Below, in pieces: positions 1 through 16,733 of a stretch of 62,567 bases of DNA (position 1 is its first letter; the number at the start of each line of letters is the position of its first letter). Position numbers and translations under genes: made by a program. This stretch comes from Vermamoeba vermiformis (lineage: Eukaryota), in the NCBI GenBank assembly GCA_045837725.1, contig JBEWZL010000045.1:1-62567 (forward strand). Direction: 5' to 3'. The notes under the pieces were generated by a model. That model was not told the origin of the DNA. It did no database searches and saw only the letters and a program-made list of their open reading frames with translations.

Positions 1-1420
1 GGCTATCTAGAAAAGTGCAACATAATTAGTCAGGTTGCAAGCACTGAAAACTACCTGATCCACTTACTTTCACGCTCCTGTCATCCCGGTGCAATTTTGT
101 GAGGTCTGCAGCAATGCTAGTGAGATAGCTATTGTAGTCCGCTTCAGCAGTCTTGCATTTGAACCAGGCATTCAGGAAGGAGCGATCCACCAAATCAAAA
201 TGATCTGAAGAAAGAGCGGCATCCACCTCAAAGGTTTGCGACGACTTCATCCCGTTTACGAATTTCGTGTAGGCGGCATAATCGATAGAGCAGTCGGAGA
301 GCTTGTCGAGCAGCGCACCAAAGTGATCAACTGCATCAAAAGATTAACAGGGGACTATGACGTATCTATTGACTCGCTTACCCTCAGGAGTTGCTGGTTT
401 TGCTTGCAACTCCTTTGCTGGAAAGATTTTCTGGGGGGCAATATCTCTTTGAGCAGACGGGGGCTTGGCTTTCTGGCTAGTCTCACACTGAACGGCTGGT
501 GACCAATCTTCTTCGTTTCCAGCGTGGTCCTCGACGGTTACCACCTGCGGAGGTGCCTTCTTGAACAATTTGTCCATCATTCCCTGACTCAGCTCAATTG
601 GCAACTCTCCTTCAACCATTGCTGTAGAAATGGGTTGAGCCAGTGCAATGCAGCAAAGTGCCACAAACAAACTCACCGATGAAGAGGTTCTCTTTGTGCT
701 TGAGTGTATCTGCCAAGAAGCCACCGTTGACAAACCTAGCAGTCAGTGCAAAGCCGTTCTTGACAAGGTAGTTGACGCACTTGACTGCCTTGCGAGCTGC
801 TCCTATCAAACATTTGAGTAAAATTGCATGTACCTTCGGCTGCTACTCACTGGACTCTGTAGTATCATCAATACGCTCCTTTAGAGCCTTCTTCTTCTTT
901 CCGGCAGGGGAACAGTCATTGCCTCGACTGTCTCCTGCTTGGTGGCCCATGTCATCCGCTTGGGGGTTCTTCACCTTGCTCCACCAATGCCGTGCCATCA
1001 TTTGGACCGTCCCAGCCATCCAGCTGTCCTTCTGGGTTGTCTGATGCTCTTGCAGGCACATCATCAACATGGTGCTAAGACTCCTCCTCTGCTGATAGAG
1101 ACAGAGCCTCGGCGACCTGCAGTGTGGCAATGCATTAAACAAGCTGCTTTTATTGAAGGCAATGTGATTATTCGATTTACCTTAAACCTCTTGGCCGGTC
1201 TCTCCGAGGACTCTTCATCGTCCTCGAGCACCCTCTTCCGCTTCTTGCCTGCTTGGGCCCAACAGGACTGAGCGTCTGCAAGCTGCTTTTCGGAGTACTC
1301 CAACTCTCCGTAACTAAAATAAATCGGTTCAGATGACGGTTACAACCCCAGTTAAAACACTTACTATTTTTTAATAAGGGCTCTCAAGTCGCTCTCAGAC
1401 CCCCATGTCTCTCCGGCTAC
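1..1420 (-). pseudogene. Degenerate multi-exon gene of unknown function with NLS-like motifs; runs off the left edge, 5' end not resolved
   Basis: GT-AG joins give ...ETWGSESDLRALIKKY|YGELEYSEKQLA...GKKRKR...PAKRFK|VAEALSLSAEEES* and later ...PATPE|VDHFGALLDKLSDCSIDYAAYTKFVNGMKSSQTFEVD...RSVK|gtaagt. The middle has in-frame TAG stops (about 1075, 843) and frame changes. Confidence 0.45.
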
Positions 1421-1926
1421 TAGGGCAAGGTAAAAAATGCACATCCAAAGGCGGGAACTTTTTGTCGGTTGGATTTTTGGATGCGGATTTTTACTCCAAA
1501 GACCGACTCTTCTCCCTATAATTAAATCTATTCTAGGCCCTGAAGCCTTTGACAGCCTCGGCTCAATTAATGAGATTTGAGTGAGAAAAATAACAATTTT
1601 GGATTTTGAATCCTGCGGTCTTGCGTGCTCGGATAAAATTTTATCGACCAAGCCTACATAATTTTCCTTTCGTGTAATTTTATCAGTCATAACTTACTTA
1701 AATCTTTCAAAAGTTGGTGCGTGGTTGTGCGTACTTGATTTTCGGCAAAAATAACGGTACAAAAAAAGCGCGCTACTGGCCATTGGTGGGTAAGCCAAAA
1801 AAGGAAACCCTTGTCTTGGGCAAACATATTGAATATAAACACGACCATTAGAAGGTGGTTTATTTATGCAACGTATTTTAATGCGTTAAACAGAATGCAC
1901 TCAAAGAAAGCATCCAGATCCTTCGT

Positions 1927-2438
1927 TTACCATTCGTGCAGTTGGTCTCCTCGGATTCTTCTGGCCAATTGCATATCCTTTGGCATTATAGTTACTCTCT
2001 TGGCATGGATGGCTGCCAAATTGGAGAGCTCCAGCAGAGTGACGAGAAATTCCTCGGCCGATTCCTGCAAGGCGAGCATTGCATTTTTCTGGAAACGAAG
2101 ATCCGTCTTAAAATCTTGGGTAATCTCTCTGACCAATCTGCAGAAAGGAGCAAAGGGCAACAGCAGGTTATAGGACTTTTGGTACTTTCGGATCTCGCGA
2201 AGAGCAACTAAAGGTAATTATTAAAAAAATTAATTCAAAATATTAGCAAATAAATGATTATAATTAAGTATTAGTTATGCTAAATTATTTTCTTCAATAT
2301 CTTACCAGTCCCGGGTCTAAATCTGTGCGGTTTTTTAGCGGATCCCTTCGGAATTTTACTGCGCTTCTTCGGCGCATTGTTCTTACGTGGAGCCTTGCCT
2401 CCCGTGCTTTTTCTTGTGTGTTGTTTCGTTCGTGCCAT
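1927..2438 (-). CDS. H3: Divergent histone H3 variant, 2 exons (2438-2306, 2207-1927)
   Basis: Spliced product [84 protein letters not shown]...[28 protein letters not shown]. The 98-nt GTAAG...TAG intron keeps the frame. Confidence 0.95.
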
Positions 2439-2491
2439 ATTATTACATGTATTAAACCGAGTTTTTGGTTAGTTTATTTTTTGACCAGATC

Positions 2492-3546
2492 ATGGAACAC
2501 AAAATCAATTTTAGGTAAGCATTAATACAACTTTATTTATTAATAATAATATTTCAATATAATTATTAGACAAGTGGGCAACCCAGATTTATTCGATTAT
2601 TTTTACCTGGATGTGGCCCGGCAAGAATTTTTGCTCACTATCAACGGTGCTGCTAGAATCCTTGGCAAAACTAAGTTTGCATGGATGAAAGCAGCAAAGA
2701 AAGGTAATAAATTTAATTTTTAAAATATTATTTATTTCTGATCTGATCATTAACCAGATCCCGAGTACGCCAGCATTGTAGTCGAAAATGTTGCCATTGA
2801 ATGGTTTGAGGGGGAAAGGGTTGACGGCAATGCTTTGCGTGCCAAGTGGATCAACTTGCAAGGGTTGAACAAACTCGTTCCCCTGTACATACGAAACAAA
2901 AACTTGAATGCAGTGTGCAGTGTGTTGACGTAAGTATTGTTATTCTTTATTTTAACTTATCCACAATTTTTAGTGAGCAACTCTTCACCTTGGGACTTGA
3001 AAATGTTCTCCAAGTCCAAATAGATGCCGAGAGCAATCGAGTAAAGGTAAGTCGTATCATGCATTAAATATCCATTTATTAACTTTTGGACAGTTTGCCC
3101 TGGTTGACGACCTTTCCAAAGCCTATGCTCCCTATCAGAGGCCTCCTACTGAAGTTGAGCTGCTTCCAGATGGAGTGGAAGTGCTCAATTTGGTTGCCAA
3201 ACGCGTTGACGAGCTCACGGATAACTGGCTGGCTGAACAGTACCTAACAGCTGACAATAAAGCTTTGCTGGATAAAGCCCCTGATTTGCCTTTCGATGAT
3301 AGGTGCCGTCAGCGGTTGCGCAATACCATTGCCAACCTCTTTGCCTCCTTCTCTGAGGAGGAACAAAGACTCAGAACCTTGCGAGCAAGCGACACCGAAG
3401 ATGATGAAGAGGATGAGGAATCAGAAGAGGAAGAAGAAGAGGAGGATGATGACGAAGACTACGGTGAGAGCAATGACCATTCCAGCTCCTCGGTGGAGGA
3501 GAAGTCAAACGATGAGTCTTCTGTTGACTCTATGGATATTGATTAA
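2492..3546 (+). CDS. Five-exon protein with Bro-N/P63C-like N-terminal region (tentative) and long Asp/Glu-rich C-terminal tail
   Basis: Four GT-AG introns keep one frame: MEHKINFR|QVGNPDLFDYFYLDVARQEFLLTINGAARILGKTKFAWMKAAKK|DPEY...RAKWINLQGLNKLVPLY...|EQLFTLG...|FALVDD...DTEDDEEDEESEEEEEEEDDDED...MDID*. The domain call is from motif resemblance only. Confidence 0.7.
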
Positions 3547-4961
3547 GTATGAAATATAAAGCGTCTTTTCTTAATTTAGCTTACCGATTATCATCTTGGA
3601 AATGCAACGAACAGCTTGCTTTTGCGAATTGCCACCTGAATAACGCTTTTCAACTTCCGCCACCGATCTTTGCTCATTGTGGGCAATCAATTTAAGATAT
3701 GCTCTTGATATAATTAGTAATGCATATTGGTGAATAGAGAGTTACTTACCAGTTGTTATTCCGCCAAATCCAACGATCCCGTATCTCGAATCGAAAACTT
3801 TTTTGCTTTTACGGCCTTAATTGATGTTTGCTATTAATAAAAGTAATTAAAATATTATAGGGATATATTTTAATACGTCTGCAACTTCAACAATTGCAGA
3901 TTTGACCCGGATCAAAAAATTGATCAGGACCAAAAATTGATAGAAAATCGATATAATTATTTTTTTAACGTGTAATATGTTATTTTTATGCTATTCTAAT
4001 ATAATTTATATGAAATTAATCATTAAAAGACTTACCAGTCGCAAAATCCAAAAAAAAAAATTAAATCTGGCTTGCATTGGAAAAAAAGTTTTTCTAGTCT
4101 CTGCTAGGTTATTTAATCTCGTGGTAAATTACACCCCACGAGATTTTGACCCTTTGTGCCCCTCTGTTGCGGCTGCATTGGATCCCAGGATAGAAATACT
4201 AACGGCCACAGGTGAAAATCCTCCCAAAAACCGCGAGGGAGGATTTTACTGGAACGCACTTTTCTCGGTTCGGCGGTCTCCAGTATTAAAAGTAATTACA
4301 TAGTGATGATCAGCGACGTTTACTCTATAACGTCAATTGCTTTGAGGCCAATTGGTAAGTGTTTTTAATAAATTTTTATTCGGTTGCACAAATTCGTTTC
4401 TAAATCTGGCAACGCTGGATCAAAGATTAAAAACCTTCAAATTTAACGCTTCTTTTCACTTCATTATATTATATTGACAGTAATTAATACTACTATGCTT
4501 CTCCCATCAATATTCATTGCCTACTAACATGTGGGCAATGAAGCAGATCCTGAATCCGAAAATTTTTGGCTTAATAATGACTCAGTACAGTTACTAATAC
4601 GGTGAATATCTATTAAACAGACTGCTTTTTGCATTGGCAACGCGATTATTCATTTTTGCTCGGGCGTACGTACTTTGAACTTTCTCATCCCGAATCTGCA
4701 ACCAAACTCTCTATCAAAAAATTGGTAACACTTCAATATTTATTCACATTGCATTTCTGATCATTATTTTGCATTCAGGCAAGTCTAAAACTTTTGTGCC
4801 CCCAATCCCAAGTTGTAACCACAGGTTTAAAACTTTAAAGTATCAAACAGATAGCTTTCGATGAAAGCAATGCGATTAATGTATTATTTAACTTTGCTCA
4901 ATAGGTCTACACGAGTTTCCAAAGCTTTCATTTTTTGTTTTTCCCAAAACGTAGCAACACA

Positions 4962-5600
4962 ATGGACCGTCGCCTAAAGCTCTTCTCAAATATGTAAGTG
5001 CTTGAATTATCTAATTGTACATTATTTAATGCATAATACAGCCCGCCCAGAGACCCTGGTGCACCTCGCATACTGCTTGGACCCCGCCGTGCATCCACGA
5101 CCGACGATACACCCTCCGCACCCAGCAAGCGCCGCAAGTACGAGCAGGTAGTAGGTGCTCCTCTTTACCCACCTTCTTAACAGATCTTTTCGTAGCCTTT
5201 GTTGCCAATCATTCCAAGCCAGGTAATCCTCCCCAGGATTGCCTTGTTATGGAGTCAGTCGTTTGATTCTTCACCTGGTGGGTGCCAATGGAGCCTTGGA
5301 TCACTAAGACTTGTCAGCCGCAATTGCAAACATATCTGTGATGAATACTTGTTGGATCGAGCTGCTTCGCTGGGATCTGTTGCTGGAATGGTCAAGCTCT
5401 CTGGCCTGCGCTTTCAGCCCACCAACAATACCTGTCGCTTGGCTGCTGCTCAAGGGCACTTGGAATGCTTGGTCTTTGCCTACTGCAACCTTTACATTCC
5501 CTTGGAAGATGCATTGAGCATTGCTCAGTCATCAGGCTTTGTCCACATCCTTGCTTATGCCAAGAAAGCTGCATGGCCAGTACCGAAGAAACTACAATAG
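4962..5600 (+). CDS. Small F-box-like plus ankyrin-repeat protein (giant-virus-type ankyrin), 3 exons
   Basis: MDRRLKLFSNI|PPRDPG...PSKRRKYEQ|PLLPIIPSQVILPRIALLW...SLRLVSRNCKHICD (F-box-like), then LDRAASLG, TCRLAAAQGHLECLVFAY and ALSIAQSSGFVHILAYAK (ankyrin-like). Confidence 0.6.
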
Positions 5601-5761
5601 TCATTATTCTGTTAATGCTTATAGCAGACGTAATGCAGCCAAAATGCAATAAACAGGTTTCTTTCATCGAGTGCAGCCTGTTTGATACACTTTCAGCCCA
5701 CCCAAGCAGCAGGGCATCCTCCAGAGATGATACCTTGTGTATTCACTGGTCCTTGTGGGGG

Positions 5762-5890
5762 AGGGCGTCCGCCATGGAGGACGCCCTATGGTACGTGTTT
5801 GTCTCAGCAGGGGAGGACGCCCTATGTACTTATCCGTGCCGGTCTGAGGGGGGGGAGGGCGTCCTCCATGGAGGACGCCCTATGTACGTG
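5762..5890. repeat. Two copies of a 26-bp GC-rich palindrome plus a half copy
   Basis: AGGGCGTCCTCCATGGAGGACGCCCT is a perfect palindrome at 5856-5881, with a 1-mismatch copy at 5762-5787 and a half copy GGAGGACGCCCTATGTAC at 5812-5829. Confidence 0.9.
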
Positions 5891-6110
5891 CCCAACTGAC
5901 CTCAAAACTCCCAGCCCTAGCCCTATTACCAGTATAATCAAGCACAAAAATAGAAAAATCTAAATAAATTTGCAAATTGATTATTTCGTGCAAATTATGC
6001 TTTTTCCGATACGAGTTGGCTTACCACTTGCTTCTCCGCTCTTTAATAAATTTTTGAGGTATTCTGAAATCATTAATGAAATGTCACGGTCTGATACTCT
6101 TGTCTACTTA

Positions 6111-7219
6111 TCGAAAGGTATTGTAAAAATGCATTTGGGTATATTTGGGGGGCATTGGGAGGATTATTGTTGGAAAATCGATGTTTTGTAAGATTTTAAT
6201 AAAATTTGATGTTGGCCCTTGAAATCACTTGCAAAAATCTGCAAATTTTCAATCATTGCTGCCCCATTCGGAAATCATTAGCAATTTCCAAATTAGGAAG
6301 GTTGCCAGCATAAACAATGCTTTACAGCATGTACATACCATTCCAACTTGTCCCGTCAAATTCTGTCAATTACTAACTGTTTGCCAGAATGCTCCAAGGT
6401 GGTAACAGGCAGTTAGTGTAACTAGCAAATATAACCATATATGGCAAGAGGTTATGGACATCATAAGTGGACCTTTACAAAAAACAATGATTTGAACTTG
6501 CCGCACCAAATTCCGGCAATTACTAACGACTTCCTTGTTGCTCGTAATCCTTGTAAATTCTGTTTTTTAACTGAAATTTCGGGATTTGACAGTAATTACC
6601 AAATTAGGAAATGATGGGGCAGTTGGCATTTGTTGCACCATGGTTACTAAAGTTGAAACTTGTCCCAACAGTTTTTATCAATTACTAACGATTTGCTGAT
6701 CACTTTACTATATTTCTATATTAGGCAAGTAGAAAACTCAGTTTTCAGCTGGGAAGTGCAAGGCATATAAATGATGGAGGGAAACTGTTAGTAATTGCCA
6801 GATCATATGCACACAAGTGCCAAGAGGAGTGTTTTGCAAATGTCTACCTCATGGACCACTGATATGCACCACAAATTTCCTTTTTAGGCTATTCCATGCT
6901 ATATACTTGCTTTTTGCACTGTATTTGCCCTAGGAACACTCAAGTAAGCATCAGACTCCAATTCTTTTGTGTACCATGATCTGGCAACCTTCAAAGCATC
7001 AAATCATGATTACAAACCAGTGAAACACTTCCTAATATGGGCGCCTTAGAGTAAAATGGGGGTTTCCCAGTTGATTTTCAAGAAAACAGGCTGTAACTTC
7101 AGCTCTACGGCATATTTTGATGTGCCGTTTTTTTTGTTCAACTTGCACTTCCATGTACTATGGGTTTTCTGAATAAAAAAATGAAATATACCCAAATGCA
7201 TTTTTACAATACCCTCCGA
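6111..7219. mobile_element. Non-autonomous TIR DNA element (MITE-like), about 1.1 kb, 36-bp TIRs, TACTTA target-site duplication
   Basis: Left end TCGAAAGGTATTGTAAAAATGCATTTGGGTATATTT (6111-6146) matches the reverse complement of the right end (7184-7219) with 2 mismatches. TACTTA flanks both ends (6105-6110, 7220-7225). No credible ORF inside. Confidence 0.85.
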
Positions 7220-7538
7220 TACTTACTAGGAAGGCTCATAGCTCTTGCTTCGAGTATTTATACACTAATTTCCTGGCATTGACTTTCCTTTGTGGTCATA
7301 AGATCGAATTGTCGCCTGAAATTCAAAAATCTAAATTTGAAGTTAAATCGTTATTAGCACGCATCGCGACGCCCAAAGAATTGTATGTCTTACCGTTGCA
7401 TTCTCCAGTATGCAGCGCATTTTCAGATGGTCAAAATTAAAAAATTAACAGAGCAACGCACATTTCGGATCGCGTTGCATTGGCTAAATGATCACACTTC
7501 GGCAATTCAACTTAAAATGAATTTTAATACAACTATAA

Positions 7539-9388
7539 TTACAAATCAGTGTGTGTCGCTGTAGTTGGCACGCTGTTAGTCTTCTTTGAGGTAGACTGGA
7601 ATGATGGTGGTACAGAAAAGGCCAAAATATTGCACAGAGACACAGTGTTGAGAGCTGCGTGACCGAGCCAAATATCGAACATGTAGCCCTCGGGAAACTG
7701 CAACATGAATATAGCAAATGCTGTGGATATCGCTGACAACAACAGACCAAAAGCAGTGAACCCAATACGCAGTGAGATCTAATAACGTTAACGACGATTT
7801 CAAAAATGAAGCTGAACAATCGCTTACTCTTGCCGTGTATCGGTCCTTCATTCGTTGGCTGTTTCGTACTCGCTTCACAACACGAGCAGCAGTGATGACG
7901 TAAAACACACCAATAGACAGACCAACAATAGTGTAAATGATACCATCCACGTACAACATGGTGTTGGTGAGACCGAGGGGCAGACATCGCAGGATATTAA
8001 CGATGACTTCCAACCCGAACAAACAAAAGCTCGTGACTATGAAGGGAATTTTCAGCTTCTTGATGCCTGAATTCACATCAATTTTGTTCGAGGCGAGAAT
8101 CTCGTGCCTAAAATCAAATATTATTAGAACTAGCCCCGCATCACATCCACCTACGAGACCTACCAGAAGAATGTAATCATCAACGAAGGAGTCAAAGTGA
8201 ATGGCACGCTGATTAATAGCATCACAATATTCCCGTTACGATTGTAAAGCCGACGCATGCCACCGATGTCAGGTGCGTATGAGAGACGGACTGATAGACT
8301 TCGAATTAGACCAGTTCAATAAAAGTACGTGCTCTACTTACGCAAGTTCGCGGCCATATCAATTGCGAGACTGATTTGCGGGATGTTAAACGCAAGGCCT
8401 TCATCGCGACGAATAAACGCGCGTAATCTAATAATACCAATGACAATATTCGTGATCTCGAACAGGCCCAACGATATCTGTACTAGGTAGAGCCAGCCAG
8501 ATTCAAATACGGGCTGCCATGGGTTCTCTGAAAATCACAAAATAAATTAAAATTGGAGGAAACTCGGCAAATAATAATAATTATTAAATTCACACTCACG
8601 TTCGAATTGAATTTGCACCGGCATCGTGTCGTACAACTTGATGTTGCTTGTAATAAATTCGTATTGCGTCTCTTCAAGCTCAACAAAGTCTATTTTGATG
8701 TCACTCGCGTCGCCATTGTTAGTGGCATATTGAATAAAACCGGGCACACCTGTCAGAGTGATCGAATAGAAGTTAGCGAACATATGATACAACATGAAAT
8801 GTATTTCATTATATTTGATACCAATATTTCAGTCAAGTATAATAAGGTTATGTAAAGAGCCTTGCAACGCGGTTGAAAACTCGATCAGCGTGCACCAAGT
8901 CTTTAAAAAGTTGCTTACCAGAAAACCCTTGCATGACAACGGCAATGGCACCTTTTTGTTGCATATCTCGTAAGATGTCTTCGGGTGGTACGAACAGATC
9001 CGTCAAAACAATTTTTCCATTCACATCCGGCCATGAAGACCGAAGAGAAGGATCACCAGCATATATTAAGGTACCATTGTAACCCTCAGAAACATTTTTT
9101 CCTGCTGGAAATATGTCAGTAAATAATAATACTACTTCGGTGCACAACGTGCGGATGGAGCACCGACGACAACAGTAAATTTGAAATTTTGGAATATCAA
9201 TTCCGTTTCAAATCGTTTTATACTAATATTTGTTAGCTATATTGCGTTATTCAAGACTTACCAGTCAACAGCAGTTGAGCGGTTTCATAATTTCCTGCTA
9301 CGGCAATTGGCTCGAAAATTACCAGCTGACAGCCAACGCGACAAATTATACAAAGTATAAGGACATTAATAATCTTCAACTGAATCAT
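7539..9388 (-). CDS. Signal peptide + PA (protease-associated) domain + multi-pass (about 7 TM) membrane protein
   Basis: Exon 1 MIQLKIINVLILCIICRVGCQLVIFEP; PA-like DVNGKIVL...DMQQKGAIAVVMQG; then several hydrophobic helices (IPFIVTSFCLFGLEVIVNIL, GIIYTIVGLSIGVFYVITAA) and a Ser/Thr tail. Internal exon boundaries are approximate. Confidence 0.6.
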
Positions 9389-9741
9389 GTTTGGAAACTA
9401 TTAGTCGACCTGAAACGAAGCGTCAGTCTAGATCCCCGAAAATTTTAAATTCGTAATAAACAACAACTTACAATGCATCTATATGAAATACCACGTGTTG
9501 TGGCAGTCTACTCTTCAAGAATTACGTTTAATAGCTTTTTGGAGTCATCTCCAAGTGATGGTTGACACGTGCTTCTTTATTTGGTAAAAATAACGTGACG
9601 GGACCGCGGGGAGAAATGTGACCATAACTCGCACCAGAGGCCTTTCGAACGGTCCATATGGATTGTTTGGTCGTACAATAGCCTTGAATGGCTGCGGTTG
9701 GTGCCTCTTACAGTGAGTTCAACCATCGGATGTAGTGGACC

Positions 9742-10800
9742 TCAACACGAGCCAATGCAAGGATGACCGCACTTCTGTGAGTTTTCCACGGCAATGTTCC
9801 AGTCACGTGGCACCACTCCAAGTGCATTTACATTGGCGGTGCAGTTGCTGACCGACATTCGCTCGTCGTGTCTCCAGTGCACTCGTGAACCGATTAGCCA
9901 TATTCCAAGCGACACCTCTTCAACGGAATAATACGTCAAAAAGTCCTGGCGATGATGTTGCGCGAGTAGCGACACGACATCGTACGAGAGACCAAAGAGT
10001 TCTGGCTGCGGATGAGGAGGAAGCTGGTAGATGTATCGTTCGAGTAATTGAATGTCGATGAGTTCGTGATTGTTCACTGGCTCTTCGTATCGAATAGAGC
10101 CCCAGATCATGCGCGTGCTGTTTGGATCGGCTTTGAGTTGCACAAAGCTGTTCGCTAACTCGTCGGTGCGCAAGAACACTCCGTCCTTCACGCGCAGCAG
10201 TAAATTGAAGCGACAGTTGGTTTGCACCCAATCATATATTACTAGCACCATCACTCCGTCATAAGGCGTCTTAACACTAAATGAAGCGAGTTAGTAACGA
10301 TTAGAAATTATCGATTTAGAGTGAATGAAAGTTTGTTTTATGGCGTCCTAAATTGATATTACTTACCCAGATTTCTTTTTTTGAAAATCTAATACGATTT
10401 CGTCGTCATGGCTCGGAGTGTAGTCATCAGTTTTAGCAATAAAAAATAAAACCTTGATCTTCACGTCCTTTCGGTCCTCCATCCATTTCTTCCAAGTATT
10501 TCGAATTTTTTGACGACCTTCCGAATTTTTGCCGGACGAAATAACCGAAATTACCACATCCACGTCGAACTTCGGATTCCTCGCTGGCTCTGCCATCACA
10601 ACCGAGTCTAACTTTGAGTTGTCTCTATGTTGCGCTACTTTGACTGCTACTATCTGATTTCTCTTTTGAATAAGCGACATCCACGACTGCTGTAAGAAGA
10701 TGGCATTAACTACAAAAATAGCCACTAGCAGCAGAGGAAATCTGTACGAATTAAATAATTGCAAGCAATTAATCCTCGATGAGCGACTCCACGGGCGCAT
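9742..10800 (-). CDS. GT31-family (beta-1,3-galactosyltransferase-like) type II membrane protein, 2 exons
   Basis: N-terminal TM anchor, VISVISS..GRQKIRNTW, IYDWVQTNCRFNLLLRVKDGVF, GLSYDVVSLL, EEVSLGIWL. Confidence 0.7.
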
Positions 10801-11072
10801 GGCTATTGTGTATCACAGATGCGTGGTCAAAATTGGATTTGTTGGAAAGCTGTTCACAAAGCTCTGCTCGCTCTTGTGTGTCCTTCCACGGTTATAATTA
10901 ATAGAATAATATACAAAAAACAACAGGACGTAATCTGAAAACTCCCGAGATTGGTCTTTTTGCGGTCAAATTTCTTTTTGTGTTATTCCGGGCTTTTTTG
11001 TTCTTACTTGCTCGATCGACGAACCACAAAGCTCCGGAACCTCGTCTTTACGACCGTAAACCTTCTATTAGA

Positions 11073-13997
11073 ATGAGCCACGACGTGCCTATTGATGAGC
11101 AACTCAATGAAATGGAGATTAGCGAACAGGAAACTCTTCTCCATAGAGGAAAAAAACGAAAAGCAAATGAAGCTCAACTTGAAGATAGGCACGTGGACCA
11201 TGATGACAATAGCAGTGGTCAATTGAACGAAAAAGATGAAAGGTTCAGCTGCTCATCGGATTCTCAAAACGTACAAGTTCCGTCGCAGCATAAAAAACGA
11301 AAGTTAGGAGACTCCGACGCCCTTTACACTGGATATTCGATACCCGATCATATTTCAAGGTACCCATTCTTAAAATATTCGTATTCAAAATAATTCAAGT
11401 CAGATTCCGAGTTTTTAATTCAAATTAATTCAATTTCGGTTGCTAGTGCTACCAATGGAGATCACCCAGCTGCCATTATTTCCAATACCAATGTTAGAGG
11501 AGAATCCAACCAAAATCTTCCCTTCAGCCCAGCCGAGATCTCAGTTTTCACCGAAATAGTTGCGACATCTCTGGATGCGGCTCGAACTCAACTTCATCCA
11601 TCGCTCCATTCAAATCCTTTTCTCCAATTTATCCCCAGAACGCGTCAAGAGCTGTTAAAATTAATTCAGAACGTTGAAGAAGACGCAAGTGACATTTTCA
11701 CTCGATCGAGCATACGCGAGCAATTAGAACGGATTGCAGTATTACTACGTAAAGAGTAAGTGAACAATATATACAAATTATACCCGCGAAGTTCGGACGA
11801 GTTTAGTGAATGGCCATTGATGAATACGAGAAACGTCAAATCTTTCAGTAATTGAAACAGAATCACTTTTAGCCCTAAGTGCCTTAAACACTCTTTTCCA
11901 CTTACAATTCGATGCTGAAAGCGCAAATGACATTCGTGATGCGTTTCTATCGCTTTTGGGAATTTTTTTAAGTTAGATCATAGTACAACTTTTTAACTTA
12001 TGATAGAAACACACGCTCGCTCGCTTATACCATTTATTTTAGTTATATGTTACTATTTTGTTGCAACAAATTAATTTACATTTTATTGGCGAGTCCACTT
12101 CTTTTTCGGGAAGTTTGGTCTATTTTTGGAACTTCGTAGTGCGTCATGTCATAACTAACAAATTACTTTTAGGTTCTCTTTTACGACTTTTGTGCGCAAT
12201 ATTGCAGTGTTGCGCTGTTTCAACCGATTGTACACGCTCAACAAGCCTTTGATGGTCACAGACCCGTCATTTGATCATCGCCGCACAGTCCGATGGTTAT
12301 TAGACGGGTGTCAAACAGTAAGTTGTGACGATACAAATCAAAAAGATCGTGTTTTCAGAACTTGGAGAAATAATCGAATCACAACTTGCGGTTGAAAATT
12401 AACTCTCGAGAAGTACTAATGATTCTCGTACTTGTCAGACCATTGAAGACGTGTCTGATATCCCTCATCACGAGTACTTGCTTGTGCAGTTTAAAATGCA
12501 AGCCTTGCACATGTTGGGACTGTTGGCTCGTAACGGTAAGCGCGAATTGTTTCCTTGCACGTGAATGTTGAATCTCTCGCCACCCGGCGCATTAACCCGC
12601 AATTTGCGCGTGCTAAATCTACACCTGGACGACTTGTTAACCCTTTCTTTTACAGAAAAGAATCGAGAGCGAATGCTTCGAGAGGGCAGCTTGTCGATCA
12701 TCGTGCACGAGATCAAGTCCTACACTGAGGTGGGAATCTTAGAGCGTGCCTGCTTTGCATTTGGCAACATCATCAATAGCACCATTGAGAACGTCGAGGA
12801 GTTCCACCGCTTCATTCTCGACGAGCAAATCTTGCAAGCTACCTTGCGAGCAATGCGCGCTTTGATGGACAACCCTGAAGTTGTCAAACAAGTCTGCTTC
12901 GTGATCGGTAATATTGCCTTTACTGGTGACTACGAAGAGATTATCAACCAAGAGAGCGGTATTGAGCTCGTGGTTGAAGCCATGCAAAGATACGGAACCC
13001 ATCCGGCCTTGCTTACGGAGGCATGTTTTTTCTTGAAGAACATGTGCTACGGAGAGGCTGGTCGGGTCCGACTTATTGAAGCTGGTGGTGTGCCTGCTGT
13101 GATTAAAGCCATGAACACATTCCCCGAATATGCGGAGCTGCTAGAGCTCGCTTGCAACGTGTTCTACGACTTGTCCTTCACAGCCAACACCGAACAGCTC
13201 GTGATTCAGCACGGCGGTCTTGGTGCCATTCTCCGTGCACTCACGGCTCATTCGACTGATCTTAATGTGCTCAACGAAGCCACACGAACGTTGGGTCGTT
13301 TGTATTCCTTGTGCGGTAAGTCCTGCGAGTTAAACGAACTCACAACGTTCTAACGTGCTCATAGATGATGAGAACAAGTGCATGTTCATCCGTCAAGGAG
13401 CAGTCGAAGCGATCATTTCGGCCATCAAACAGCACCCTAATGAGACCGAATTGCATCAGCGAGCATGTTGGAGCTTCTACCGCTTGTCCAAAGAGAAACT
13501 GAAATACGAAGTAGTAAGTCTCGAGATTGGCTGGAAGAATACCTTTGTCTAACCGCACTCTTGTGCAGAATCGCGTGGCTGAACACTCAACGGTACCGAG
13601 CCTGAGAGAGCTGACGGCACGAGCCATCCACAACACCTGTAACACTAGTAATACTGCCAATCAACCGCACAATCATAGCCATAGCCATATACACAACAAC
13701 TATACCACAATCAATAATGCCCCGACCAACACCAATAATAATAACAATTACAATACCGATGCCATGGACATTGTTCGACCAGATCTCGACTTCACAATCT
13801 TGCCCTTAGAGCTACAAGAGTACCTACAAGTAGCCAAGAAATGCACACACTGCCAAGGCGTATGCTTCAGCGAGTTCTGGGAGCTGATCCGATTCGTCAA
13901 GTTTGAACAGCACGACGACGAACTGCCCGTGTTCATGCGACTATGTTCTTTCGGATGCTTGAACGCTGTAAAAGCTGAGCCTCCTAAAAACGAATAA
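11073..13997 (+). CDS. Armadillo-repeat protein with C-terminal BC-box-like and Cys-rich module resembling the LRRC58 tail
   Basis: ARM repeats (ERACFAFGNI, KQVCFVIGNI, EACFFLKNM, ELACNVFYDL); C-terminus VPSLRELTARAI...LPLELQEYLQVAKKCTHCQGVCF...LPVFMRLCSFGC. Multi-exon. Confidence 0.75.
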
Positions 13998-14156
13998 AAA
14001 TATGGGGCTAATAGCTACCGTAATAATCTATGCACCGTTTGTTCAACAACGTTTTTCCTCGTGGACCAATTTTGGCGATCGTTGTGCGATCTGTCTGTCA
14101 TTCATTATTTTTTTTATTTTGGTGCCGAACAACTCACCTCGTGCCAACGCGGTCAA

Positions 14157-16435
14157 ATGTTGCGAGTAGTAATTACCAAAAGCTTGCGTTCAAAGCAAGG
14201 CCACAAGCTCATCAGCATCCAAAAGGCTAGATTTAGCAGCTCCAAGCTATCCAAAAATACTAGTACAACTTTGAAGGCAACAGCTATTTCCGATGACGCA
14301 AGCTTTGCCGTTGCAGCGGCTCCTTTTGATTATGAAGAGGTGATCGACATCAAGCGTGAATATTTTGGCCGCGCTTTAGAAGAATATAAAAAGAAGGTTG
14401 AAGGACCCCTTATCAATAATTATGTTACACAAGTTACACTAAAGGAGCGAAAAGTAATGAAGCAGGAAATTTTAGAGCTCGCCCAACAAAAAAAATCATT
14501 AAAACGCCAACAGAGGGAAGCCCAATTAAAAGGTAAATTATTTTCGTATATAAATTAATCCGTTTATTATTATTTTATATAATATTATTTTTTGGCCACA
14601 ATACAGTATTTTTAGAAATTTATTTCAGATCGATCCCATCTGCAACATCCAACGACCGACTACTAACCATGTTTAATTAATTTAGAAAAAGAAGCAAAAG
14701 AGCAAATCAAAAGAGATAAAGCTGAGGAGCTCAAGAATATTATGACGAGCCAAATTCCCCCATTATCAGAAGTTTTCAGTTCTGGAGCATTTGAAGACGC
14801 TCTTAGACAAAATGTACGTACATATTATTAATAATGCTCGTGTATTTATAACAATGCATCTTCATACAACGATGATTTCACGAGCGAGTTGATCCAGATC
14901 TAACTCTTATTATTCCAGCCCGATGTTTTGACCAATATTAACGTTGAAGAATATGGAGATGATCCTAAGTTTAGCAAGTCTATTTTTGAAACGTAAGTCC
15001 ACACGAACGACGAGCCAGATCGTGTTGTCAGCACGTACTAATCAGTGCACGTGTGCAGATTTACCACCGCCGAACACCCCCCTGCGTTTATTGTTGCTGC
15101 TCCCCACCGCCAATGGGAATGGGAAATTCACTTGTCTCAACAGGAACGAGTAAGTGTTGCCGCATTTGCAATGGTTCTTGTGCGCTAATTACTAACTGTT
15201 GTAACGAAGATGAAACTCGTCTACAAAGACTTGGTTGCACGTGGCTTTACTCCTAATCCTTTGCCTCGTGGTGTTACTATCGAACAGACTGATGTTGAGA
15301 AGTTGCAAAGTGCTGTGAAAGACTTCTTGAACGGATATGACACGAAGCCCGTTGAAAGCTCTACTGACGCCAAGTCATGTACGTGAAGGCTCTTTATCCT
15401 TAAAAAACCTGACTAATAAACCCGCAGCGGATAAGCCCGCGACCACTGGCGCTGCTGAGAGTGCCGCAGAAGCTGAGGTTGCACCCACCGTCGAGGAAGT
15501 TGCTGAGAACGACGAGTTCTTGCGCAGATTCGTTGACCGACCTGAAGACGAACTCGAACAAGACCTCGATGCCGCGCTGAATCAAAATGCAGTTGTGGCT
15601 GAGATCGCCACCAAAGAGAAGAAGTTCGATCCTTTGGCCAACCCCTTCGATGCCTCCACTCCTATTCTCACATCACCCAAGCCATTGCGCGTTAAGGATC
15701 GCCTGAACGCCGTCCCTCTCGTGACTGACAAAAACCCCTTCGCGTGGGTCACTGTCGACAATCCTATGATTCCCGAGAGCATCAAGAAGACTAAGCTGTT
15801 CAGACGCGCCACATTGTTGGTACGGATCGCGCATGTTAACAAGAGTCGTGTCACGATATTAATAGTTGTGCTTCTTTAGGTGAAAGTGTCTGCCCTTAAG
15901 CTCCCCAAGATGGTTCACAGCCGATTGTTGCAGATCGTTGGTCCTCGATACAACCCCGACTTGGATGTGTTGAAGATCACTAGCACCGATCACCTGGAGT
16001 TCGTGAGTACATTCACAGTGCACGTTAGAGATCCGAACTAACATCGTACAAAAGAGTGAAAACAGAAGGTATTGCTTGAAGCTGTTCCAGGCCGCTATTT
16101 CTGATGCCTGGAAGGCCGATCTGAACTACGTTTCTCCTGCTCAAGAGCCCATCTACCCTCATCAACAAGTACGCGCCAAACAATTACTCTTAAAAATGAC
16201 AGTCGTTAATAGAAACTTTTGACAGATTGTTCGAGAGTTGCACCAAGAGCAGGAACTCCAAAAATTGAAGTCTGAATACGGCGTTGAAGGCGTTAAAAAT
16301 AGAACGAGCCAATACCCTTTCGTTATCTTCCGTTATAACCCTCACACAGTTCCTAGCGATGAGCTCATGCAACAACGTCAAGCATTGCTGATGCGCTTGC
16401 TCCAAGTATTCGGATTCAGCTCAGCACAAAAATAA
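14157..16435 (+). CDS. Mitochondrial small-subunit ribosomal protein mS35 (Rsm24)-like with long N-terminal extension
   Basis: Presequence-like MLRVVITKSLRSKQGHKLISIQKARFSSS; C-terminal VKVSALKLPKMVHSRLLQIVGPRYNPDLDVLKITSTDHLEF|SENRRYCLKLF resembles the mS35 domain. Multi-exon. Confidence 0.65.
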
Positions 16436-16733
16436 TAGAAAAAACAATAATTGCGGGAAATAATTTAAAATGATGAGAATGTTTTAAATAAAAAACAGTA
16501 TTCATGACCGCCACTTTGCTAAATCTGTCAATTGACAGCCGGAATTAATTGAAAACTGGCGCAAACATGATCGTATACCGCCGAATTACCTTATCATATT
16601 CCGTTCAGGTTCGCTTAAAGGCGGTAGAATCACTTTAAGACCGGCACTTAATTAAACGCGTCACCACAAAAATCTTTTTTTTCTGTTTTATCTTTTGTGT
16701 TCGACAACACACGCTTCTCTGATTTGTTTCAAA

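Follow-up and report, generated by a model that had tools for sequence, protein, structure and literature searches.

Telomere repeats are, to our knowledge, the target of the transposons described as specific to chromosome tips, which move by means of either a reverse transcriptase (RT; Terminons, HeT-A/TART and MoTeR) or the transposase of a Helitron. Yeast Y' and the fungal MoTeR/FoTeR retrotransposons are polarised repeats restricted to tips, and Starships are large elements that carry cargo. No one-ended or tip-replacing element is described in the literature searched, which included few subscription journals and no supplements. The telomeric Helitrons of Paramecium have a transposase open reading frame (ORF) of 9-10 kb, a defined left terminus, telomere repeats on both sides and, in the accessible part of the account, no captured genes (PMC13085455). 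Here we describe a tip element in Vermamoeba vermiformis that matches none of the telomere transposon families with which it was compared. The window, by which we mean the whole 62,567-nucleotide stretch of DNA analysed, is the start of contig C45 (JBEWZL010000045.1) of assembly GCA_045837725.1 (43.3 Mb, 309 contigs), and its positions 1-5938 are, judged from sequence, the inner end of a chromosome-tip element that carries genes and has multiplied recently, named family A. All results are based on this one fragmented assembly, of which less than 1 Mb was read, with tips picked by similarity.

Family A and the chromosome tips

The features that define the inner end of family A are as follows.

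1..5938, no strand: inner 5.9 kb of family A; six copies with an identical right end; C45 starts inside the element
5757..5884, no strand: array of GC-rich 26-bp palindromes; unit number differs among copies; fold computed
5910..5938, plus strand: fixed inner terminus, in which TATAAT follows two telomere-like units; the final 1-2 bases coincide with the target
5939..6109, no strand: unique flank between family A and a terminal inverted repeat (TIR) element; no other match in its own genome; the last 4 bases are the left target site duplication (TSD) of that element

A search of the genome against itself identified six copies of family A (C45, C267, C302, C264, C251 and C184; a lower bound) with 96-99% identity. 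In each of them the element breaks off at one and the same base of CCCTAGCCCTATTACCAGTATAAT, beyond which the six flanks are unrelated; the shared terminus reads CCCTAGCCCTA...TATAAT. The distance from the inner end to a contig end is 2.6-19.8 kb, and every copy faces inward, giving a single polarity. The longest known form measures about 8.75 kb, its left part being visible in C267, C302 and C251. The outer start of the C251 copy consists of 2-3 telomere repeats, and those of C267 and C302 lie no more than 10 bases from that point, so that three copies with differing inner flanks have a common outer end point inside the outermost gene (the core gene, below), as expected if a whole donor tip had been copied. 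The C264 copy is broken near window position 1261 and is joined there to the end of another element. Family A was also present in X3, an independent aquifer metagenome, with a summed depth (not a measure of copy number here) of 2.8-7.8 across 1-6050 versus mostly below 2 across host sequence. A 4.4-kb element with 71-bp TIRs sits within the C251 copy (C251:10968-15422, L038).

The original prediction on this DNA had taken the first 7.2 kb for a CpG-poor island from a silenced, intron-containing large mobile element or endogenised virus, whose copy number and leftward extension, towards a mobility gene, would be informative. The six copies, with canonical introns in each modelled gene, agree with a multicopy, intron-containing mobile element, and the hairpins and palindromes that had been noted are present at 5757-5884. 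Extension to the left recovered the outer part up to about 8.75 kb, in which no mobility gene was identified.

Other contig tips carry stacks of many families that are unrelated in sequence and share the same type of terminus; several contig ends of the assembly carry (CCCTAA)n arrays. A terminus pattern, which was written after examples had been seen and does not catch the window's own end, matched tip DNA 41 times facing inward versus 2 outward, and had no match in 55 kb of host DNA. With a looser pattern there were 71 candidates, 47 of them backed by a second copy ending at the same place. Among 52 termini curated by hand from these candidates, 46 end in AAT and 6 in AGT (AA or AG before the T), and in none (0/52) do telomere repeats follow the inner terminus directly. 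In uninterrupted copies of the target the join fell at AT in 14 of 18 junctions (GT in 1, AC in 1, 2 ambiguous), the background value being 0.081 (p about 1e-12). The outer half of the target, distal to the terminus, was missing at 14/15 junctions, and at all six where the contig reaches a telomere array. Outer ends of tip elements are capped by telomere repeats or cut by the next element; copies of a second family, B, range from about 24 bp to more than 1 kb and several are capped directly by (CCCTAA)n. Among the genes carried at other tips are more H3-like ones, SET, BTB, ankyrin, His-Me nuclease and JmjC. We thus state with high confidence that the tips are built of elements with a fixed inner terminus and one polarity, joined at one end to A^T-type sites in older tip DNA.

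In another class of tip element (L037:6540-6570; C124, C117, C183), telomere repeats follow directly on a terminal TATAA, and the members on C117 and C183 contain a recombinase-like gene whose tail is chromo-like. Elsewhere, an 808-amino-acid ORF with Ulp1-like and DUF7869 domains is cut by the end of a tip element (L203:3-2426).

The hand counts on which the CpG-poor island had been proposed were reproduced, a recount giving 30 CpG at 421-1320, 11 at 6200-7200 and 13 per 120 bp at 15421-15540. The computed observed/expected ratio (o/e) was 0.71 at 1-7219 versus 1.17 in the remaining window, so the depletion is real. It is patchy, however, and the supposed island merges two unrelated repeats: o/e was 0.51-0.67 for the GC-richer genes and for the end, 0.98-1.12 across the H3 gene and the AT-rich parts and 0.36 in the TIR element. 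Comparison of the family A copies revealed transitions at 87 of 444 majority-CpG positions versus 31 of 2123 other C/G positions (p 6e-44) and at 57 of 3393 A/T positions, CpG sites changing about 13-fold faster than other C sites. This CpG-biased spectrum points to deamination of 5-methylcytosine and suggests that the host marks family A-type elements with CpG methylation, which matches the silencing mark anticipated by the original prediction.

Genes of family A and the neighbouring repeat

Spliced gene models were made by hand from the sequence and are predictions; the four modelled family A genes contain 1-7 canonical introns each, the two plus-strand genes retaining 4 and 2. The features to the left and right of the inner terminus are listed below.

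1..1444, minus strand: exons 1-6 of 8 of an orphan gene rich in nuclear localisation signals (NLS); stop near 1075-1077, extra base near 962
1927..2438, minus strand: divergent histone H3 of 137 amino acids; one 98-nt intron, 2208-2305, in the V46 codon; Pfam PF00125, E 5e-33
2492..3546, plus strand: orphan gene of 284 amino acids with an acidic tail and 4 introns; first taken for a Bro-N-like gene
3547..4931, minus strand: AT-rich stretch with intron-like signals by eye, possibly another gene; a 69% relative at C76
4962..5600, plus strand: orphan gene of 181 amino acids with 2 introns; F-box-like and ankyrin-like stretches by eye only
6110..7220, no strand: non-autonomous TIR element of 1111 bp; 4-bp TSD at 6106-6109 and 7221-7224

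The divergent H3 that had been noted in the region was confirmed as a histone by its Pfam match, and the gene is intact, being open in all five copies that hold it. In a gap-free alignment it is identical to the intronless canonical host H3 at 95 of 137 positions; the start of the tail and K4/K9 are kept, while the K27 region and several fold residues are changed, and residues facing the second H3 and the chaperone are altered. Introns in the H3 variants of the host lie in the G44 codon in two and at about that place in a third, with none there in others. The V46 position differs from these, which argues that the element H3 is no recent copy of the host genes seen. Its best identities are 75% to giant-virus H3s and 74% to host H3. 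A viral origin was considered and not adopted, as a tree of 64 rows (55 of them giant-virus H3) gave no resolved placement. CenH3 (CENP-A) is marked by a longer loop 1, a divergent N-tail and loss of Q68; the element H3 aligns with host H3 without a gap and its tail starts canonically, so that the replacement of Q68 is the one such trait it shows, and this identity was rejected.

Two more H3-like lineages occur near contig ends (L189:7971-8453, L211, L212, C258:14095-14379, C221:9185-9391), one near-tip lineage having long charged N-termini and forming a supported clade of 3. The chromatin module that had been proposed is thus represented in family A by H3, the further H3-like genes, SET and JmjC being found in other tip elements. 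Two RNA runs came from a strain mostly 90-95% alike (821/902 and 1427/1549 reads); their H3 reads were short matches from other H3 genes and carry no information on expression of the element H3. RNA runs bearing the species name of the best DNA source were mostly only 90-95% alike to this genome across window positions 7151-16500, possibly reflecting a cryptic species.

The gene rich in NLS had been called decayed. The window copy is indeed broken, by the in-frame stop and the extra base, but the gene is open (533 amino acids, 8 exons) in the three other copies that hold it whole (C267, C302 and C251), and the extra base near 962 was not present in two read-derived sets. Its last exon has a 35% match in a tip element on C221. 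The 284-amino-acid gene is open in three of the five copies holding it whole, including that in the window, and the 181-amino-acid gene in all six. The Bro-N-like label given to the former was not borne out: PF02498 had no candidate in the genome at E<=10 (its control was positive in 5/14 genomes, and the exons of the region are under 60 amino acids), and exon-wise Pfam and PHROG scans of family A genes, limited in power by short exons, gave no Bro-N match. A kinship of this gene with an ORF beside recombinase-like genes was discarded, resting as it did on a one-exon BLASTP match at E 0.36. The F-box/ankyrin label of the latter was a resemblance by eye, without a Pfam, protein or viral-contig match within the same limit of short exons. 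Atlas searches and searches with longer proteins returned no match.

The TIR element had been described as nested in the island. Its TIR pair is real (6109-6146 / 7184-7221 in the repeat scan), but nesting was ruled out: the element lies 171 bp outside the fixed end of family A and has its own 4-bp TSD. At least 11 other near-full copies with 98-100% identity were found in the genome; of 11 loci examined, 2 were without a terminus and 1 without a flank, and a 4-bp TSD was seen in 7 of the 8 other copies with both flanks. The variable 4-bp TSD would presumably fit the Sola group. At three loci (G000 C239:612763-618831, C145:62207-68383, C69:36682-42750) TIR termini stand about 6 kb apart, marking likely autonomous partners.

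Other repeats were encountered in the assembly. An AT-rich, CpG-rich family (o/e up to 1.8), the opposite of the CpG-poor elements, occupies L037:1-6550 and dozens of contig ends, and within it lies a Ginger-like TIR element (L037:2564-5184) in which an rve integrase was recognised (Pfam E 6e-16). Several DIRS/Ngaro-type retrotransposon families were seen at L151-L158; they have ORFs for gag, RT-RNase H and recombinase, and in many of them the open frames are long. DIRS/Ngaro, LINE and Ty3 elements were considered as partners of the tip elements and set aside, a terminus-like pattern occurring once in the LINE loci that were read and three times in Ty3 loci, with no link shown. A GIY-YIG candidate at C307 was also dropped; it is a lone 227-amino-acid ORF beside a kinase, with no RT seen within 1.8 kb.

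Mode of spread

We tentatively favour, at slightly less than even chances, a one-ended, DNA-level transfer that replaces chromosome tips. A trans-acting enzyme would recognise the terminus (hairpins plus CCCTA...TATAA), cut a subtelomeric A^T site and join the terminus to the target in a Helitron-like (HUH-type) geometry. The donor tip would then be copied or moved outward as far as its telomere, replacing the old tip, and erosion and telomerase would fix the outer end. The H3, SET and JmjC cargo may, speculatively, help the elements to escape or shape silencing. Three points favour a DNA-level route: genes on either strand retain their introns, target and terminus are Helitron-like, and three independent insertions have a common outer end; A^T targets, 3' termini ending in RR and subterminal hairpins are given as Helitron traits in the accessible part of PMC13085455.

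The joining enzyme has a candidate in the outermost gene of family A, which lies outside the window, runs into telomere repeats and is truncated in the known copies, so that these would be non-autonomous. It matches the profile of an orphan family (E 1e-11) whose longer members, on the tips of C260, C32 and C221, are all oriented toward the telomere, and is common to four tip families. The protein has conserved DxD, KxY and YxxRxE motifs, and its database relatives are 12 unnamed proteins with 34-61% identity to the nearest tip copy. There was no match to any Pfam family, PDB sequence or fold; a first structural model reached pLDDT 42 and a domain model pLDDT 80, the latter without a Foldseek match at E<=0.001 in PDB or BFVD (best Z 6.0). 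A Rep_trans-like reading of the motifs found no support, although it may still hold. JGI metagenomes gave no match for the core exon or the terminus pattern, near-identical records possibly falling outside that search. The best candidate for a near-complete element is a telomere-capped 48-kb tip with many outward genes (C260:1-47949; L174-L177, L164), whose ORFs include the core gene and JmjC, with LRR-like, ParB-like and dioxygenase-like ones by eye.

Several points weigh against a one-ended transfer. The role given to the core gene is a guess and no transposase was identified; a search with Helitron_like_N (PF14214) gave 0 candidates, its control being silent, and the three intron-split matches to PF05970 look like host PIF1. 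No Helitron left terminus was seen, and the palindrome hairpin of family A lies about 57 nt from the element's end. Two of the three common outer ends are contig starts, and C45 itself has no telomere array. At the C158 junction, upstream target sequence is found distally, inside a multicopy repeat, and the small duplications at junctions on C184, C264 and C243 are also compatible with priming by an RT. Finally, all the evidence comes from one assembly, without long reads. It is possible, though doubtful, that the tips represent a new class of element in which the chromosome tip is the mobile unit, with one defined end and the telomere as the other. The core protein would then represent a new enzyme family that moves the tip, and the element's own histones and chromatin modifiers would serve to cope with host methylation.

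Polarity, head-to-tail stacks, variable outer truncation and telomere capping would also fit an endonuclease-deficient retroelement of Penelope/Terminon type, whose RT primes on the chromosome end and copies unspliced plus-strand RNA that ends in the terminus, giving 5'-truncated stacks; the telomere-like units in the terminus, the 2-3 nt common to terminus and target and the small duplications at joins fit as well, and Terminons have the same layout in the accessible text of PMC6431247. We regard this as unlikely. All 52 inner joins are without telomere repeats, genes with retained introns lie on both strands, and three copies have one common outer end. No Penelope RT occurs in the known 8.75 kb of family A, the tips of the assembly being incomplete, or among the 25 of 55 RVT_1 matches that were read (Ty3, LINE, DIRS/Ngaro and TERT), the other 30 being judged by size. 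The same search recovered a TERT exon (L272, C282:351400-352000), so its sensitivity is fair and the cell encodes telomerase. No hammerhead family was found at E<=1 in six loci, including the full family A copy of C267, and a minimal motif scan was also blank.

Decaying islands of giant-virus or captured genes, spread passively by subtelomeric recombination as in Acanthamoeba (described, as far as the accessible text goes, in PMC12210455), are quite unlikely. The tips are likewise subtelomeric, probably methylated and orphan-rich, and His-Me nuclease, ankyrin, SET, BTB and H3 genes also occur in giant viruses, so the cargo could be virus-derived from long ago. Passive recombination, however, does not account for a single, sharp type of terminus, with an A^T target, across many unrelated families, and introns are present in all the modelled genes. 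A scan of 92 tip ORFs revealed no viral hallmark; a capsid model gave 0 matches with a silent control, a weak null, and polB and ATPase were not searched genome-wide. With spliceosomal introns in its genes and an H3 no closer to giant viruses than to the host, family A does not support the endogenised virus of the original prediction.

Exchange of chromosome tips by a tyrosine recombinase, acting between the terminus and a short AT core, is improbable. Intron-containing recombinase-like genes with chromo-like tails do exist at six places, some beside telomeres, but the label comes from motifs by eye and one weak Pfam match (E 0.049), family A has no such gene, its second end is absent, and the core common to both sides is just 1-3 nt. 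Two of these genes (C16/C231) had appeared to adjoin a terminus, which proved to be an intron, and that candidate was rejected; two others lie in elements whose end is of another kind and bears telomere repeats. An assembly artefact, suggested by the position of the copies at contig ends and by the extra base near 962 that two read-derived sets lack, is hardly credible, since divergence among the copies amounts to about 0.8-3% and is biased towards CpG, empty-site sequences exist elsewhere and the independent metagenome X3 contains the element.

We take the tip system to be real and unusual, with recent activity. Elements of many families seem to take the place of whole tips at ordinary A^T sites, no enzyme of the known types being visible, in a cell that also has a telomerase gene. 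If one-ended transfer is the correct reading, a new transposase or replicase may be sought in the orphan core protein, and it is elements that drive the turnover of subtelomeres in this lineage. An intact H3 in a probably methylated element also makes the possible use of a transposon's own histones against silencing directly testable.

Comparison with known systems

The Terminons/Athena elements of bdelloid rotifers, which are endonuclease-deficient Penelope-like elements, are likewise large multi-gene elements at chromosome ends; their inner 3' end is fixed, telomere repeats truncate them on the 5' side, they form head-to-tail arrays, and telomere-like sequence lies near the end (PMC6431247, PMC8557442). 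In contrast to them, no RT or hammerhead was found in the tip elements, the inner join is at an internal A^T site without telomere repeats, and the cargo of family A consists of H3 and orphans on both strands. The telomeric Helitrons of Paramecium aurelia share the hairpin-bearing 3' terminus that always faces inward, the repeats near the end and the abundance of non-autonomous copies at chromosome ends (PMC13085455), whereas family A is one-ended, with no comparable ORF or left terminus seen and an inner join without repeats.

With canonical Helitrons (HLE1), family A-type elements share subterminal hairpins, gene cargo, a terminus ending in RR and an A^T target without TSD (PMC13085455), the last being judged from one side, as the outer side is lost. 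The CTRR ending of Helitrons was found in one tip family; family A has ATAA, its hairpin lying about 57 nt upstream. Unlike HLE1, no Rep/Hel or 5'-TC end and no two-ended insertion were seen (the 14/15 junctions above), and the elements are confined to tips. Helentrons/DINE-1 (HLE2) have a T^T target and subterminal inverted repeats; the target of the tip elements is AT, and a repeat scan of the window showed no inverted copy of the terminus, the outer end perhaps having been lost. Histone fragments captured by a Culex Helentron are on record in the accessible part of PMC4067079; the histone of family A is intact.

The giant-virus islands of Acanthamoeba are also subtelomeric, multicopy, methylated and orphan-rich, yet have few introns and, in the accessible text, no recognisable borders (PMC12210455), whereas family A-type elements have many introns, a sharp common terminus and no hallmark found. 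Family A further differs from Y', MoTeR and Starships, as no helicase, CRE-type RT or captain gene was found in it, and from the tyrosine-recombinase elements of Crypton/Starship type in having no recombinase gene and no second end with a direct repeat. Family A is thus like Terminons and telomeric Helitrons in position and polarity, but departs from both, and from endogenous giant viruses, in defining characters.

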